A DNA stretch of 64,000 bases from a virus, in the IMG/VR virus record IMGVR_UViG_3300036770_001423, positions 1-64,000 of that record. One strand, 5' to 3'. Below, one piece after another: positions 31,449-37,966 of this stretch. Below the pieces are notes generated by a model, which did no database searches, was not told the DNA's origin, and was given only the letters and a program-made list of their open reading frames with translations. The position numbers and the translations under genes were made by a program. Numbering within the stretch: position 1 is the first letter of the stretch; each line of letters begins with the position of its first letter.

Positions 31449-32354
31449 CTATGTGCTGTTCTCATTTTGCTGGGACTTGACCCACTCAGTGGCTTGCCTA
31501 AAAGCTTCTTCTTCACCAAGCCTATACACATTGAATGTTTTGCGTTTTTTATTTCCGCACATCATTTTGTACGCAACGTAGTGACCTTTTTTATTTAAAT
31601 GGACATTCATTGCCTCTGTTTTTGTGTACCTTGCTGGTTTTGTTTTATCATACTTCCCAAATCGTACAAGGTAATGGTATATAAAATCTTGAAGTTCGGA
31701 GTCTTGTGTTGGGTCATACCCTTCAGAAAAGCGTCTGAATAGTGCCTTATAATTAGTTGACCTGTTCAAATTCAGTGCATTACTTATACGATAATGTTTA
31801 TACCCTTTCTTATAAAGATGGTATATATCGTTGGCGAGGGACAACACATCCTTATTAGAGTAGGGAGAGTTGATTAGGCTGAAAGATTTCATCACCTCCG
31901 ACCTAGCAACCCTCTCTGTTTCTGGAACATCCCTATTCTTCAGCTTTTCAACCATATGTGATGTGTCTACAGGTATTCCTCTTCTCATTGCAGATACTAC
32001 TGATTTTTGCTTGTCGGTTTGTGGCCTACCTAGCCTACCATTCAGTCCACCACCGACACAAATATTCCATCCAATTAGAGGAGCTGGTCTTAGTTTATTC
32101 TCTAACCATCTGGCGTAATCAAGATCACATTCACACAGGACAACTAACTCAATGTCGTCCCCATATTTAACCATTGCTCTATGAACTATGCCAATAGAAC
32201 TGGCTTTTTGCTTTTCGCCATTTTTCAGTTTCTTAGCAACTCGAAGATGCGTTGAGTACCTTCGCTTTACACTACCAGATGTTATACCAACATAACCTTC
32301 TGTATTTATATCAGTATGGTCTTTGTGTTTTATCCAGTATACAAAAGAACTCAT
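31449..32354 (-). CDS. Free-standing GIY-YIG homing endonuclease
   Basis: FVYWI..GYVGIT..R..H..E..GWN catalytic domain; NUMOD3-like and AP2-like C-terminal segments. Confidence 0.85.
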   Translation of the reverse strand: MSSFVYWIKHKDHTDINTEGYVGITSGSVKRRYSTHLRVAKKLKNGEKQKASSIGIVHRAMVKYGDDIELVVLCECDLDYARWLENKLRPAPLIGWNICVGGGLNGRLGRPQTDKQKSVVSAMRRGIPVDTSHMVEKLKNRDVPETERVARSEVMKSFSLINSPYSNKDVLSLANDIYHLYKKGYKHYRISNALNLNRSTNYKALFRRFSEGYDPTQDSELQDFIYHYLVRFGKYDKTKPARYTKTEAMNVHLNKKGHYVAYKMMCGNKKRKTFNVYRLGEEEAFRQATEWVKSQQNENST

Positions 32355-33871
32355 CCTTTGTTTTCCATATTCAAACTGCTGTTATTCTTACCAGCAGCAC
32401 CAGTGCCGTTACCCATACCTTCGACCATGCCGTCACCACTGCGAGTAGTCATGTCACTAAGCTTCTCAATGATTTCATCTTCATCAAGCTTCTCAATCTC
32501 TGTAGTGTCATAACCACACTTACGCCACAGTTGAACAAGCATTGCTTTGTCTCGTGGGAATAAGCCTGTAGCGCCTAAGCGTTGACCAGCTTTAGAAGCT
32601 TCTTCAGCATCAGCTTCATCCAGCTCACCAAACGTCATCACTGGCATATCATCTTCTTCAAGCTTAAGCTCATTAATGTCTGCAAGAGACTTAACAAACT
32701 CACGCTCAAATACTGTTTTGATATACATCAGCATACGTTCCATGTAGAAAGCATGGACACTGCGACTACTATCTGATAGACTATGTGAACCTGTATCGCC
32801 TTGACCAACCAGAAGGAAGGAAGCGCCTAATACGTTAAGAATGTCTTTCTTACGAGCTTCAATTAGTTCAGAGGTTTTATAGGCTTTACTACCACCGTCA
32901 ACACCTTTCAGTTCAACATCATAAACGTATTTACCGTTACCTGTTTCACCGTGTGTATCAGAGCCTAAGAGGATATATGTTTGATCGCCAGCATGAATAG
33001 CAGCAGCATTCTTTTGTAATGCTTTTAATGTGGCAGCTTCAAGACTATTTTCATCTTCAGCAGCTTTATTGATATGATCATTCGGAACACGTAATACAAG
33101 GACACCACCCAAGTCCTTGCTCACCCCAACAACCTCATAGCTTGTAATCATTTCAAGCTCTTTCCAAGATTTGAAGCAGTCGTATAGATCTGATTTACCT
33201 TGGGGGTTGTTGCCTGTACTATTCCAACTGAACAACATAAACTTTTCTCTACGAACAAATTTATCTGTTAAGTTTTGTACAGTGAAAGGGTTAATATTGC
33301 TTTGTCCAATGACTGTAGCTGGCATCCATTGATATAAACCAACTAAGTCTCGCTTCAATACAGCATCATCAAACACCCACTCACGAACACTCTTTTGAGC
33401 GCGAGGAGCAAGCTTTGCATATTTGTATTTATATTTACCAGACCATTTAATACTATCATTCTTTGCGAAGACTTTCTCAAGCCAAGCAAATCCGTATTTA
33501 CGGAATGTGATAATATTTGTGATGGCATCATACCAACTGTTACCGACAAAGTTCTTAATGTTCCAGTTTAAGAAGGCAGCAAAGTCTTTTGACTCTTGAC
33601 TTCCCGATACACCTGCGATAAACTTTGTAGCAAGTAGGGACTTGGTGAGGAATACTTCTCCAGCAGTTAATCCTTGACTAACAGCAGAAGTAGAAGCCAT
33701 CTTATCATATGTGGTGAGGCTATGAGGAAACTGCAATTCTTTCTTAGCAGATTCTTCGATGTAGCCACCGATGGCTTTTAGATATGGATTGCCGATCTCT
33801 CCTAAGCGAAGACGACTGTCTGAGCTAGAGGGATTAGATTCAGCTTTCTCAATTTGAATTGTTTCTGACAT
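32351..33871 (-). CDS. Portal protein
   Basis: 506 aa after terL; YGFAWLEKV, NPQGKS, GSHSLS motifs. Confidence 0.88.
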   Translation of the reverse strand: MSETIQIEKAESNPSSSDSRLRLGEIGNPYLKAIGGYIEESAKKELQFPHSLTTYDKMASTSAVSQGLTAGEVFLTKSLLATKFIAGVSGSQESKDFAAFLNWNIKNFVGNSWYDAITNIITFRKYGFAWLEKVFAKNDSIKWSGKYKYKYAKLAPRAQKSVREWVFDDAVLKRDLVGLYQWMPATVIGQSNINPFTVQNLTDKFVRREKFMLFSWNSTGNNPQGKSDLYDCFKSWKELEMITSYEVVGVSKDLGGVLVLRVPNDHINKAAEDENSLEAATLKALQKNAAAIHAGDQTYILLGSDTHGETGNGKYVYDVELKGVDGGSKAYKTSELIEARKKDILNVLGASFLLVGQGDTGSHSLSDSSRSVHAFYMERMLMYIKTVFEREFVKSLADINELKLEEDDMPVMTFGELDEADAEEASKAGQRLGATGLFPRDKAMLVQLWRKCGYDTTEIEKLDEDEIIEKLSDMTTRSGDGMVEGMGNGTGAAGKNNSSLNMENKG

Positions 33872-33883
33872 TATCCCCTCAGA

Positions 33884-34987
33884 TTATGAATTAAGGTCAT
33901 ATTGCGCTTTGATTGTGGGATCGTTGAGAGCGGTTAGTTTTGGGACTGTGTAGGTTTTGATTGTATTCAATGCGTTTAGGGCTGAGGCTGCGCAGTCGGC
34001 TACGTCATCCTTGTACCGCTTTGTGCTACGCTCCCCTGAAAACTGTTCTAGACTTTGTAGATAAAATTCCAGTGTCGCAGCATCAAATGTGCTTGCTACA
34101 ATCTTGACTAGACCATTCTCACAAGCAGAAGCAAAAGGAGCAAACTTTGTCATCTTAGATTTGTTACTCGGCATAGGATCTGCTTTAACAACATAACCTT
34201 TACCTATTAATTTCTTAGAAGACTCAATGAACTCATACTTACCTGCCGCAGAAGGATCTTTTGGAAAGATTATTGTAACATCAGTGCCGTCATGTGCTGC
34301 TTGTAGCTCTATGAGGTTATCTCGCTCACCTACAGTCTTTCTAACTACTCCGAGAACTTTACTGTCTGGATCTTTAAAACTTGGGTGAAAGTCGCCAAAG
34401 ATATAGTAATAACCCTCTTTATCTTTAGCCATACCTATCTGTGCTGTGTAGTCTGGACTTGGTTCTTTGTCTGAAGGCGCAGTTCCTGCTTTATCATAAG
34501 CCCTAACGCATTTTGCACCAAGAGGAATCTTGTCAGCAATAGCACACCACTTTCTATCGAAGTACAAGCTATTAGAAGGGCGTACTTTCCAGTTACCATC
34601 CAACAATCTCGCTCTGTCGATAGGGTTCAAACCTTCCAACCATGCTAAATAATCAGGGTTCTGTTCTAGCATCTTAGGGTTGTCCCTAATTGTGCTACCG
34701 ATAAAACTGAAACTGATTGGTTTTACGTTATCACCATATGTAGCTTTTAATTCTTCTGGCGTATCTGCCCAGAAGTATTGACCGCCTTGTAAAATGAACC
34801 AGCGTATTACACCAGCCCTTTCTTCGATAGGGAAACCTTCGTCATCTAACCACCAAGAAATCATCTCTGCTATCTTGTGGTCGGGATCAGGGTTGCAACT
34901 GATCACCATTCGTGAAGGGTATTTGGACTCGGAACGCATCCGAGACATCAGATATTCTATTTGTGACCAATCGAATTGCGTACCTTC
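33884..34987 (-). CDS. terL: Terminase large subunit, exon 3
   Basis: Starts EGTQF; SCNP coupling motif, RAYDKA and DDVAD nuclease residues. Confidence 0.92.
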   Translation of the reverse strand, partial: EGTQFDWSQIEYLMSRMRSESKYPSRMVISCNPDPDHKIAEMISWWLDDEGFPIEERAGVIRWFILQGGQYFWADTPEELKATYGDNVKPISFSFIGSTIRDNPKMLEQNPDYLAWLEGLNPIDRARLLDGNWKVRPSNSLYFDRKWCAIADKIPLGAKCVRAYDKAGTAPSDKEPSPDYTAQIGMAKDKEGYYYIFGDFHPSFKDPDSKVLGVVRKTVGERDNLIELQAAHDGTDVTIIFPKDPSAAGKYEFIESSKKLIGKGYVVKADPMPSNKSKMTKFAPFASACENGLVKIVASTFDAATLEFYLQSLEQFSGERSTKRYKDDVADCAASALNALNTIKTYTVPKLTALNDPTIKAQYDLNS

Positions 34988-35237
34988 CGAAGTGTTCAAT
35001 AAGGTTCGTTAATCCTTACCAGCAGCACTACCTGCTTCTGCATGTCGCCATGCAGACCTGACTATATCATCACCCCATTAGGGTGTCTCCCGTTTCCACT
35101 CACTTGAGTGTACGCCTTTCGGCTAGTCGATGAACGTTCTCCGTTAGGAGCTTCGCTGCTGATTGTCTCTGTGAGAGTTCCCAGCAATTAGAGAGATTAT
35201 TCGACACATATTACTACGTGAAGCGACTATTTTACAA
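34988..35237 (-). mobile_element. Group I intron 2 of terL (250 nt, no ORF)
   Basis: P1 CGAU/GUCG; P7 GACUA (35124-35128) / UAGUC (35060-35064); terminal G34988; splicing restores Walker B IAFD-E. Confidence 0.93.
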
Positions 35238-35537
35238 ATCGAACGCAATGAATGTATACTGTAAGCCTTGGTGATTGTACTTGTCTTTTTCTGTCTCCAT
35301 GTGAGACCATTTCATTTTAAAACCAGTAGGAAACTTAGCTTCTAATGAATGCTCTGACATACGAGGACGGAGTTCTGTGGGTAGCTGCATATACATATTA
35401 CGTGCAGTATCAAATACGCCACCAAGACCTTTGATTTGAACTGTTGTTCTGCGGAATACAATTGCGTTTGCTTTTGGGTCATCTACATAAAGCAAAGGGA
35501 GCATTTGTAATAGGAAACTTTTGCCGGAACCGGCTGC
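35238..35537 (-). CDS. terL: Terminase large subunit, exon 2
   Basis: AAGSGKS..FRRT..QGLQYTFIAFD, exactly 100 codons. Confidence 0.92.
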
Positions 35538-35779
35538 CAAATATTATGTAGTCGCTACACTACTCTGCCTTTTCAAGCAGGATCGGGTCATATCTTCATC
35601 CCAGAGGGAGTCTACCGTTTCGGATAATCAATCGCTTATTACCCTACGCCCTGACAAGGGCTGACCTCCACACACGCCATTACGCTTGGCTCGGTATTAG
35701 CATAGAGCGTAGCCCCTTAGCTTTCACCGAATTAGATAGATTCTTAGATACACATTACTGTGTTCTGTGGCGCAAGTTC
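35538..35779 (-). mobile_element. Group I intron 1 of terL (242 nt, no ORF, variant P7)
   Basis: P1 GUGGU/GCCAC; P4 CGGU/ACCG; P7 GGUCA (35662-35666) / UGACC (35586-35590) after AAGAUA; terminal G35538; splicing restores GG-AAGSGKS. Confidence 0.9.
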
Positions 35780-35890
35780 ACCACCCATGATTAAAATTTG
35801 AGCCTTACAATCAACAATCATTTGTTGTTTTTTAGATGTAGGCCCAAAAGGTAATCTTATCTCGCGGGGTTGTTTTTGTTTAGTTGTCAT
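35780..35890 (-). CDS. terL: Terminase large subunit, exon 1 (37 codons)
   Basis: SD GAGGAG; MTTKQKQPREIRLPFGPTSKKQQMIVDCKAQILIMGG; not in the ORF track. Confidence 0.9.
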
Positions 35891-35945
35891 AAAACTCCTC
35901 TTAGTTATAAATACTCAGGGGAATACTTATAAATAAGAGCCAGAC

Positions 35946-37097
35946 CTAATCTGGCGTAATATACTTTAACAATATGTCTAATACAAGACTGAAGTCTTTA
36001 CGGTGGAATGTCTCTGTATAACCAGAACCCATTTCTTGTTTTGTAATTATACCTCTTTCGATACCAGAAGATATAATCTCACTCTCAAGTTTGCGTATAA
36101 CGTACCCATCAGGGTTCTCAAGATAGTATATTACAGATAAGGGGTATTTACATTTCTGTTGTATCTGCTTTAATCTTTTATCTAAATTATTCGTTATACC
36201 AAATTTCAGCACATCGTCAGTAACTTTCAATAAATAAAAAGTACCTCCCATAGTGCTTCTATAACCAACCCTTTGATTCGAGCATCTAGGGCAACCAGCG
36301 GCATAAAGATGACTGTTAGGTGCTTGAGAAAACACACCGTGATCTCTGCATATGATGTCTATCTTAGTATGTTGATTTTTGTAATCAACTAATGAATAGT
36401 CATATTTATCACCATGCACTTTCTTAGCTAATGATATGTATTCTTCTGTTGTGAACTTAAACATCTCTGCTTTAGCTAGTGAAGCACACTTAGTACAACC
36501 AATTGTAGTTAAATGGTGATCAGCCCTTTGAGTGACTACGCCGTGTAACTTACATTCGTATGTAATATACTTACTCTTACCAACATACTCAGTAATAGAG
36601 TAGTCATATTTATCCCCATGAACTTGTTTTGCTTTTTCTACATATTGTTCTTTACTAAATACTCTACTTTTAGAGTTATTGACAGTAGCACAAGATTTGC
36701 AACCAACTTTGCCTGCTGTATGTCCTGACAGTTCTTGTCTAAATACTCCGTGGTCAGGGCAAATAATATCTACAATATCTTTAACTTTGACATTATCGGG
36801 TATAAGACTATAATCATATTTACCGTTATGGGCGCATGTTGCTTTATCAATAAAGTACTGCCTAGGTTTTCTGGTAGCTTCTGCGATCCTTTCTTTGGCG
36901 CAGAGCTTACACCCATGTCTAGCGGATGTGTGACTGTTTGGGGTCACTTCAAATACAAAGTCGTGCTTAATACAACGAACTTTAACTTTATTACAGGCTT
37001 TAGTGTAAACAGACAAAGAATAATCATACTTATCTCCGTGAACACTTCTAGCTTTAATGATAAACGTTTCTAAATCTTCTATTTCGTGCTTTGCCAA
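35946..37097 (-). CDS. Free-standing endonuclease: four zinc-binding repeats plus C-terminal GIY-YIG-like domain
   Basis: Four HG/HNxKYDYS..C..H..H....GC..C repeats; FYLL..KFGIT..R..E..GYTE nuclease domain. Confidence 0.8.
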   Translation of the reverse strand: MAKHEIEDLETFIIKARSVHGDKYDYSLSVYTKACNKVKVRCIKHDFVFEVTPNSHTSARHGCKLCAKERIAEATRKPRQYFIDKATCAHNGKYDYSLIPDNVKVKDIVDIICPDHGVFRQELSGHTAGKVGCKSCATVNNSKSRVFSKEQYVEKAKQVHGDKYDYSITEYVGKSKYITYECKLHGVVTQRADHHLTTIGCTKCASLAKAEMFKFTTEEYISLAKKVHGDKYDYSLVDYKNQHTKIDIICRDHGVFSQAPNSHLYAAGCPRCSNQRVGYRSTMGGTFYLLKVTDDVLKFGITNNLDKRLKQIQQKCKYPLSVIYYLENPDGYVIRKLESEIISSGIERGIITKQEMGSGYTETFHRKDFSLVLDILLKYITPD

Positions 37098-37108
37098 TTC
37101 ATTAAACC

Positions 37109-37250
37109 TTAATAATTATCACCCTACTCTTAGCCGTTGGCGTAAGAAAGAGGTGTGTTTCTTAGACTAATGTAAGATGATAATTATTAAAATCTTACAC
37201 CTCATACGCAATTATTTTTCACTATTTCTAGTCAGACCACGCCAATGACC
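37109..37250 (-). ncRNA. Candidate structured (pseudoknotted) RNA in the leader of the endonuclease gene
   Basis: Six complementary segment pairs within 142 nt (see findings); strand inferred from context. Confidence 0.55.
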
Positions 37251-37402
37251 TGTATAAAATAAATGTGTCATCACTGCTACATACGTTCAGGAGAGGACAC
37301 ATTCTTACTTTCGCTAACGGGGTTAATATCCAACCAGCTTCACGCTGTTCCGCGCTCTCTAACATCAGCAAACCACATCCCATGTGAGGATGCTGAATTC
37401 TT

Positions 37403-37510
37403 TTAATCTAACCAACCTTCGTCAGCAGAGATGTAATAAATACCTTCATCAACTGAAGGGTCTAACCCCCAGTCCTGCTCGACATTCAATCCCCAATCTT
37501 GTTCTTTCAT
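37403..37510 (-). CDS. Small acidic peptide (35 aa) with internal repeats
   Basis: SD AGGAGGGG; MKEQDWGLNVEQDWGLDPSVDEGIYYISADEGWLD. Confidence 0.6.
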   Translation of the reverse strand: MKEQDWGLNVEQDWGLDPSVDEGIYYISADEGWLD

Positions 37511-37522
37511 AACCCCTCCTTA

Positions 37523-37966
37523 CTATTTCTTAGCTTTAGCCGCAGCCTTCTTCACAGCAGGAGCTGTTTTAACAGCAGCTTCTTGAACAGGAGCTTCTAC
37601 AACAACTTCCGTATCCTGTTCTGCTTCAATTGTAGCTGCTTCTGCTGCGTCTGTCAACTGCTTTTCTACAACAGACATCATAAATACATACTTTCTATCG
37701 AAGATAAATGTTACACGAAGCAATGTGCTAACAATACTACGAATATCATCTTCTGTCAAATCTTTAGCATTGGCTACAACGTAGTCAATCACCTCATGTA
37801 ACTGAGCAAATCGAATAGTATTACCACCAACACTATAATCGGTGCTAACATTGGTAAACATTTTTCCATTAATTTCTTTCCAGAAATCAGCATATGTTCC
37901 ATTCTTTACTGCTTCATAAATTGCTGGCAAGAAGCTACTCACGCCATGATAAGTTAAATTCTTCAT
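37523..37966 (-). CDS. Hypothetical protein with acidic then Ala/Lys-rich tail
   Basis: Start MKNLTYHG after SD ACAGGA; the upstream extension in the ORF track crosses a hairpin and T run. Confidence 0.75.
   Translation of the reverse strand: MKNLTYHGVSSFLPAIYEAVKNGTYADFWKEINGKMFTNVSTDYSVGGNTIRFAQLHEVIDYVVANAKDLTEDDIRSIVSTLLRVTFIFDRKYVFMMSVVEKQLTDAAEAATIEAEQDTEVVVEAPVQEAAVKTAPAVKKAAAKAKK

Follow-up and report, generated by a model that had tools for sequence, protein, structure and literature searches.

A leader RNA predicted to mask the ribosome-binding site of a phage homing endonuclease gene

Introduction

Homing endonucleases need enough expression to spread, but too little to harm the phage or the adjoining essential genes. 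To our knowledge, almost nothing is known, outside the T4 family, about how this balance is set. The question arises at one locus of an uncultured virus (IMG/VR record IMGVR_UViG_3300036770_001423), where about 150 nucleotides (nt) of self-complementary sequence stand directly before a homing endonuclease gene: what does the RNA made from this sequence do? The stretch analysed here, which we call the window, is the first 64 kb (64,000 nt) of this complete 94,296-bp genome with direct terminal repeats, and the locus (35946-37250) is read from its minus strand. An original prediction had seen a candidate multi-pseudoknot RNA at this place, and had offered three readings of it: a cis-regulatory switch that silences the nuclease, a new ribozyme, or an RNA partner of the nuclease protein. 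The first of these fits the results described below, whereas the other two found no support. The function proposed here is deduced by computation from very few sequences; we conclude that the RNA is an mRNA leader that probably acts by masking the Shine-Dalgarno (SD) sequence of the endonuclease gene.

Results

A predicted 24-bp helix covers the SD sequence

The complementary pairs on which the multi-pseudoknot had been based are all exact, in plus-strand coordinates: TTGGCGT (37137-37143) with ACGCCAA (37239-37245), GACTA (37165-37169) with TAGTC (37229-37233), TAAGAAA (37143-37149) with TTTCTTA (37158-37164), GAGGTGT (37150-37156) with ACACCTC (37197-37203), TGTAAGAT (37171-37178) with ATCTTACA (37192-37199), and a pair of 13-mers (37109-37121 and 37178-37190), the first of which overlaps the SD sequence of the TTG-start gene. 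The 153-nt leader contains six perfect Watson-Crick helices of at least 7 bp (13, 8, 7, 7, 7 and 7 bp), against 0.73 ± 0.84 in dinucleotide shuffles of the same sequence, and none of 1000 shuffles reached six such helices or held a 13-mer; the complementarity is therefore above chance. The sense strand of the leader folds with −44 kcal/mol (z = −3.83), whereas the fold of the antisense strand, at −30.7 kcal/mol (z = −2.49), is 13 kcal/mol weaker.

When G·U pairs are allowed, the 13-bp pairing grows into an unbroken helix of 24 pairs, in which 37195-37172 of the minus strand pair with 37127-37104. Of these pairs, five are G·U, and hence the helix is valid only as RNA of the sense strand, that is, on the mRNA. 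Among helices with a span of up to 170 nt, it exceeds all others on the two strands of the genome, the next two having 20 and 18 bp. (The 20-bp helix, with a 10-nt loop, lies outside the window at genome positions 85906-85955, plus strand.) The SD sequence, UAAGG at 37111-37107, is located 9 nt before the TTG and within the 3′ arm, where its equilibrium pairing probability in the leader fold is at least 0.99. The parts of the leader, in the order in which they are transcribed, are as follows.

37233-37252, minus strand: hairpin hp1 (GGUCAU-UGGC-GUGGUC), which includes the outer-stem strand UUGGCGU and is in the minimum-free-energy fold of every copy
37221-37232, minus strand: hairpin hp2 (ACUA-GAAA-UAGU, a tetraloop hairpin), which replaces the GACUA/UAGUC long-range stem proposed earlier
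37197-37203, minus strand: C strand GAGGUGU, the 5′ flank of the long helix and complement of the C′ strand ACACCUC (37150-37156)
37172-37195, minus strand: 5′ arm of the 24-bp helix, which alone folds as the D hairpin
37199-37192 with 37178-37171, minus strand: stem of the D hairpin, with a 13-nt loop; nascent RNA is predicted to adopt this hairpin as long as it lacks the 3′ arm
37130-37170, minus strand: apical domain, from the minimum-free-energy fold and the RNAalifold consensus, with the stem UUAGUC/GGCUAA, hairpin E and a loop with C′
37164-37158 with 37149-37143, minus strand: hairpin E, within the apical domain, whose loop holds C′ (ACACCUC, 37150-37156)
37137-37143, minus strand: A′ strand ACGCCAA, the partner of UUGGCGU (37239-37245), which closes the early fold only and competes with hp1
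37104-37127, minus strand: 3′ arm of the 24-bp helix, containing the SD sequence

We propose that these nucleotides form the mRNA leader of a free-standing homing endonuclease cassette, and that at equilibrium the 24-bp helix would bury the SD sequence in its 3′ arm. Since the SD sequence sits in the helix, ribosomes would be unable to load, and the nuclease would be made at a very low level. We conclude, from these structure predictions, that translational repression by SD masking is probably the main function of the leader. One hairpin loop is complementary to the ribosome-binding region, and a loop has a self-complementary core, AUAAUUAU; the pairing of loop and ribosome-binding site continues through the hairpin stem into the 24-bp duplex.

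The two 13-mers have a palindromic core, ATAATTAT, and occur as an inverted pair. This would also suit an element that acts as DNA, either an operator through which the four-repeat nuclease represses its own gene, as is mentioned for I-TevI (PMC2988022), or a cruciform or recombination site of the cassette. The five G·U pairs, which restrict the helix to sense RNA, and the weaker fold of the antisense strand both argue against such an element, and the leader is unlike the intron-insertion sites of the terminase gene. We also considered an operator that mimics the homing site and rejected it: similarity between the leader and the spliced terminase exon junctions was not above that of shuffles.

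A diverged second copy of the leader keeps the predicted helix

A covariance model built on the 116-nt core of the leader identified a second copy in one related phage (E2; contig L004:1119-1214, 32 bits). We refer to the leader in the window and its close relatives as E1. The E2 leader lies immediately 5′ of an unrelated HNH_3+AP2 endonuclease gene, a gene that is absent from the window's genome. E2 shares with E1 the end sequences of both arms, UGUAAGAUUU...UCUUACA and GUAGGGUG...GUUUAA, whereas the central dozen bases differ on both arms. By itself, E2 folds into a perfect 25-bp helix. When E1 and E2 are compared without gaps from the conserved apical end, over 21 positions, seven pairs are changed on both sides, three on one side, and none is broken. 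The E2 helix is likewise strand-specific by virtue of G·U pairs, and its 3′ arm again reaches into the SD region. We conclude that the integrity of the helix on the mRNA appears to be under selection, with the comparison to E2 as the main evidence.

The comparison bears on the DNA-level element as well. Because the sequence of the repeat is replaced in E2 while its pairing is kept, the double changes argue against a protein-binding DNA repeat, for which this would be unexpected; moreover, E2 precedes a nuclease of a different family. We regard an operator, cruciform or recombination site as very improbable.

Conservation of helix integrity rather than sequence would also be expected if the duplex were a site for processing by RNase III or for control of mRNA stability. 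The minimal substrate of RNase III is about two helical turns, and the helix has 24 to 25 bp in both copies, just over two turns. A cut in the duplex would separate the upstream message from those of the endonuclease and the terminase, and would destroy or, less likely, free the ribosome-binding site. Only the length points to RNase III, however, and the presence of the SD sequence inside the 3′ arm in both copies, together with the conserved competing hairpin described below, fits translational control better. We therefore consider processing quite unlikely as the explanation of the leader, although it could coexist with SD masking.

A third possibility concerns how repression would be relieved. 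In the design established for I-TevI, I-TevII, I-TevIII, segB and mobE (PMC2988022), the helix would form only on read-through transcripts, and a phage-specific promoter within or just after the 5′ arm would yield translated transcripts in which this arm is missing; on this view the competing fold has no role of its own. The position of the cassette within an operon means that read-through transcripts are to be expected, and there is a −10-like hexamer in the middle of the 5′ arm in both copies (AATAAT in E1; CATAAT or TAATAT in E2). However, AT-rich loops hold such hexamers by chance, and, as read from the sequence, those found here have no conserved −35 element in the window, its relatives or E2. 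A scan for sigma-70 promoters of the minus strand from 37100 to 37500 found none, with the reservation that the late consensus of this phage may differ, and the only good promoter of E2 (TTGACA-17-TACATT) lies 5′ of the whole leader. Promoter-based relief also leaves unexplained the compensated C/C′ pairing described below, and we consider it unlikely.

In L004:1024-1912, the HNH_3+AP2 gene and its E2 leader are inserted right after the native SD sequence and ATG of a DUF5681 gene, so that the native promoter of that gene (TTGACA-17-TACATT) now drives the cassette. From the displaced start codon runs a 12-codon open reading frame (ORF), whose UAA stop lies where the 5′ arm of the helix begins, at its base, and the 3′ end of the endonuclease gene overlaps a new GTG start of the DUF5681 gene. 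Coupling to an upstream ORF was considered as a mechanism, but this 12-codon ORF has no consistent equivalent in E1, and we did not adopt it.

Further copies of the leader were not found

Searches with two covariance models (R1 and R2) found no further copy of the leader upstream of 160 loci of distant T5orf172 homologues, upstream of 15 HNH-AP2 homologues, or in the rest of the window's genome and the contigs of three relatives. Exact-pattern scans of viral and prokaryotic genome contigs likewise found no further real copy, so that the total is four E1 copies and one E2 copy. A metagenome scan with the endonuclease protein gave no match, and a scan with an alignment gave only homologues of at most 46% identity. 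Because there are no copies upstream of other homologues, we suggest that the leader travels with the phage lineage rather than with either nuclease family.

Two weak matches were rejected: L005:5263-5332 lies inside a coding region, and L205:3495-3622 is an unrelated 28-bp hairpin after tRNA genes. A hairpin with a 28-bp stem also lies directly after two tRNA genes in L004:190-300, within a 191-nt stretch that folds with −67 kcal/mol (z = −4.3); its sequence is unrelated to the leader. There are no tRNA genes in the window.

These searches also bear on whether the RNA has a function of its own, be it as a new ribozyme that cleaves itself, as a riboswitch or as an RNA cofactor for the nuclease. 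Its dense complementarity, the GNRA and UUCG tetraloop hairpins in its 5′ part and its position directly before a nuclease gene are what such a reading would draw on. However, Rfam 15 gave nothing at gathering score, in agreement with the original prediction that no described family would match; searches with 196 nt and 211 nt returned only miRNA- or snoRNA-like noise of at most 23.5 bits, and even the 196-nt search gave no ribozyme or riboswitch. The family int-alpA (RF02996) likewise gave no match to the leader. E1 and E2 differ in the apical domain, where they have only the motif AAACACACC in common, and in the junction nucleotides, and the inner hairpins are not homologous; thus, the conserved unpaired core within a multi-helix architecture that would mark a ribozyme or riboswitch was not found in the comparison of the two copies. 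The absence of the leader upstream of the 160 and 15 homologous loci, and its use by two unrelated proteins, point the same way, and we consider an independently functional RNA extremely improbable.

Two alternative predicted folds in place of one multi-pseudoknot

A multi-pseudoknot that contains all six helices is not possible, because several of them share bases (C and D at 37197-37199, D′ and F at 37178, E′ and A′ at 37143) and because the pairings of loops with their distal partners have no linker nucleotides; the static structure proposed earlier is therefore not supported. In addition, 1 nt separates the GAGGUGU strand from the foot of the long helix, and the partner of this strand lies in the apical loop, about 35 bp away. 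The modelled stems fall instead into two mutually exclusive folds, whose order we derived by folding progressively longer transcripts of E1 (from the window, L013 and L014) and E2. In every transcript that stops short of the 3′ arm, the 5′ arm forms the D hairpin (8-10 bp, 13-nt loop), both in E1 and in E2. A long-range stem then closes round the D hairpin (UUGGCGU/ACGCCAA in E1; GUGGUGU/ACACCAC in E2). Once the 3′ arm has been made, the long helix displaces the early fold; its predicted advantage over that fold is 14-17 kcal/mol in E1 and 4 kcal/mol in E2.

Two features of the sequence suggest that the early fold is more than an accident. First, the ends of the 5′ arm are self-complementary by Watson-Crick pairs, and the G·U pairs of the long helix sit at the same ends, as can be read from the sequence. 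These G·U pairs deny the 3′ arm an equivalent hairpin, so that the early fold would leave this arm and its SD sequence free. Second, the 7-mer pairing of C with C′ is compensated in three versions: GAGGUGU/ACACCUC, GAGAUGU/ACAUCUC and, in E2, GUGGUGU/ACACCAC with GUGUGU/ACACAC, the latter at the homologous position. The number of such events is small, and the D stem, which does not vary, is uninformative on selection.

We propose that the competing fold would form first during transcription, as the 5′ arm folds back into the D hairpin, buttressed by the GAGGUGU/ACACCUC pairing and the outer stem, with the ribosome-binding site free. Nascent transcripts would thus offer a short window for translation before the inhibitory helix takes over, a kinetic trap like that of MS2. 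For relief of repression we would favour such delayed folding, as in the MS2 maturation gene. An SD-sequestering final pairing, together with a hairpin that first holds the upstream strand, is present here by prediction. A direct-path estimate of the refolding barrier is 16-24 kcal/mol, an estimate that ignores invasion through the pseudoknotted loop. We put this two-state step forward tentatively; it is more speculative than SD masking, and we hold it to be less likely than not.

The leader in close relatives

The E1 leader is carried by only four genomes. In addition to the window, three viral contigs have the same endonuclease (92-93% amino acid identity) in the same place, with the same leader. 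In its last 105 nt, the leader differs at 2-4 positions among these relatives. One change, G37200 to A together with C37153 to U in L013-L015, preserves the GAGGUGU/ACACCUC pairing (G-C to A-U), and an A to G change in L014 leaves the outer stem intact through a U·G pair. By contrast, the proposed GACUA/UAGUC inner stem is not conserved: its GACUA strand is changed, and it is only 80% paired in the relatives.

The 5′ part of the leader is much more divergent, yet the two local hairpins are kept with different sequences. In hp1, three columns of the stem vary and stay paired (UG/GU/CG; GU/GC; CG/UG). In L013 and L015, hp2 is AACGA-GAAA-UCGUU, with U-A changed to G-C, whereas L014 has an unrelated 8-bp hairpin at this place.

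Upstream of the leader, an intrinsic terminator occurs in the three close relatives: GCAGCCCC-GUUA-GGGGCUG and then UUUGUU (L016:7965-8000, which corresponds to about window position 37265). It is preceded by a 22-codon ORF, and lies about 20-30 nt 5′ of the first hairpin of the leader and about 180 nt from the start of the endonuclease gene. Neither this terminator nor the 22-codon ORF is present in the window, which has instead an extra 35-codon ORF with a strong SD sequence (37404-37509). A non-coding block of about 95 nt (37310-37403, minus strand) is common to the window, L013 and L015 but not L014; it starts with the hairpin CAGCAUCCUCACAUGGGAUGUGGUUUGCUG and has no Rfam match.

Points that weigh against SD masking and delayed folding

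Several observations weigh against the interpretation that we prefer. The argument for the helix depends on one paralogue, E2, and a formal covariation test on the three distinct E1 copies was not significant. Conservation among the E1 copies shows no constraint on the leader, because the flanking coding sequence is mosaic and the first 125 nt of the endonuclease gene are locally as conserved as the leader. A −10-like hexamer (AATAAT or CATAAT) stands in the 5′ arm of each copy, and a promoter inside the structure would change the logic of the leader. Distant homologues do not bury their SD sequences more than neighbouring genes do (median unpaired probability 0.37 versus 0.41, p = 0.35), although this is a crude test; our first metric of SD burial was uninformative, since E1 itself scores average with it. 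For the delayed-folding step in particular, the early fold is predicted to be the less stable one by as much as 14-17 kcal/mol, and the loop of the D hairpin (13 nt) is an ideal toehold for fast strand invasion, so that the early fold may be too short-lived to matter. Simple constitutive throttling by the helix is an alternative to delayed folding.

A more ambitious interpretation would be a portable two-state riboregulator, in which a conserved early fold (the hairpin of the 5′ arm, secured by the compensated 7-mer pairing) times a brief burst of nuclease and an irreversible 24-bp helix then shuts the message, exchanged as a module between unrelated endonuclease cassettes, and belonging to a broad class of uncatalogued leader RNAs in uncultured phages. 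We regard this as doubtful.

The endonuclease cassette and the split terminase gene

With 50-55% amino acid identity, the nearest counterparts of the virus's terminase and portal proteins are those of Alteromonas phage PT11-V22 and of phages like rV5 and Felix-O1. The features downstream of the leader are as follows.

35946-37097, minus strand: endonuclease gene, with TTG start at 37097-37095 and 383 amino acids, encoding a free-standing homing endonuclease
35939-35955, minus strand: terminator-like hairpin that overlaps the stop codon of the endonuclease gene and lies 50 nt upstream of the terminase start (35890)
35564-35789, minus strand: group I intron in the terminase gene (38.5 bits, below the Rfam gathering score)
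35038-35257, minus strand: group I intron in the terminase gene (Rfam, 83 bits)

The endonuclease protein has four zinc-finger repeat units, with weak matches to DUF723 and DUF4379, and a C-terminal, GIY-YIG-like domain of the family MUG113/T5orf172 (PF13455; 26.8 bits, against a Pfam cut-off of 22.3). Its relatives occur in 822 phage records, often with many copies per genome, and are annotated "endonuclease" or "T5orf172"; its N-terminus is kept among homologues. These similarities mark the gene downstream of the leader as a homing endonuclease gene of the free-standing type.

Among distant relatives, L006 and L005 have no such endonuclease gene and an unsplit terminase gene (498 and 526 amino acids, respectively), and in L006 the upstream gene abuts the terminase gene. 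It follows that 37523-35890 of the window is inserted DNA, and that the leader belongs to the inserted endonuclease cassette. Judged by this comparison, the cassette is inserted between the upstream gene and the intron-split gene of the terminase large subunit.

The terminase large subunit gene (33884-35890, minus strand) lies directly 3′ of the endonuclease gene and is split by the two introns, neither of which contains an ORF. Joining the exons 35890-35780, 35537-35238 and 34987-33884 gives an open protein of 504 amino acids in which the motifs Walker A (GGAAGSGKS) and Walker B (IAFDEGTQF), where the exon junctions fall, are both intact. A free-standing endonuclease gene directly 5′ of a gene with ORF-less introns (window 35538-37097) is the arrangement proposed for collaborative homing. 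A relative has an extra group I intron (L002:7868-8088, 83 bits) about 770 nt 3′ of its terminase gene, presumably in the portal gene, which in the window (32351-33871) is unsplit. We rejected the possibility that the leader represents the hidden 5′ half of a group I intron with the endonuclease gene inside: there are only 55 nt from the endonuclease stop to the terminase start, there is no upstream exon, and the introns were found elsewhere.

Two near-consensus promoters of the sigma-70 type, TTGACA-17-TACAAT (11/12) and TTGACA-17-TATTGT, lie on the minus strand at 37629-37657 and 37731-37759. They sit within the upstream gene (187 amino acids), are aimed at the endonuclease and terminase genes, and are present, also in coding sequence, in relatives.

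Discussion

If this interpretation is correct, the leader is a compact model of delayed-folding control in a DNA phage, and offers a search image for endonuclease cassettes in metagenomes. It opens no new class of biology. What it contributes is a solution that is unrelated in sequence to those described, with the same leader design before two unrelated nuclease families, and with hints of control by folding kinetics, which is so far best documented for the RNA phage MS2.

In function, the leader is of a known kind, a leader that masks the ribosome-binding site of a phage homing endonuclease gene. Structures that sequester the ribosome-binding site regulate I-TevI, I-TevII, I-TevIII and segB in T-even phages, and mobE in Aeromonas phage Aeh1 (PMC2988022). 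As in the T-even leaders, a stable structure before a homing endonuclease gene includes the SD sequence, and the gene lies inside a polycistronic unit of essential genes; the terminator hairpin upstream of the leader in close relatives resembles the layered control known for such genes. However, there is no sequence relationship to the T-even leaders, and the phage belongs to another lineage, its terminase and portal being nearest to those of myoviruses like rV5, Felix-O1 and PT11-V22. Whereas the T-even structures are local hairpins, the leader described here would form a long-range 24-bp helix that encloses a 44-nt domain and has a conserved competing fold, and it has no recognisable internal late promoter.

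The competing fold invites comparison with the maturation (A-protein) gene of MS2, in which a metastable hairpin delays the inhibitory long-distance pairing with the SD sequence (PMC4615214). As in the maturation leaders of MS2 and other Levivirus phages, an upstream strand pairs with the SD sequence over a long range and would first be locked in a metastable hairpin, leaving the SD sequence briefly free; the product, like the maturation protein, is needed only in small amounts. MS2 differs in being an RNA phage, whose RNA is made by replicase, and in that its pairing consists of 7 nt in a cloverleaf, against 24 bp here. The kinetics were measured for MS2, whereas those of the present leader are predicted.

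Functional metastable structures are also reported for the mRNAs of type I toxins (PMC6733600). There, as proposed here, folds that exclude one another form in succession on the mRNA of a potentially harmful protein, and control it with the SD sequence taking part. In the toxin mRNAs, however, transient folds block translation during transcription and an antisense RNA takes part, whereas no antisense partner is evident here. Compared with the T-even leaders, what is new in the present leader is its unrelated sequence, its occurrence in another myovirus lineage, its long-range duplex with a conserved competing fold, and its being shared by two nuclease families.

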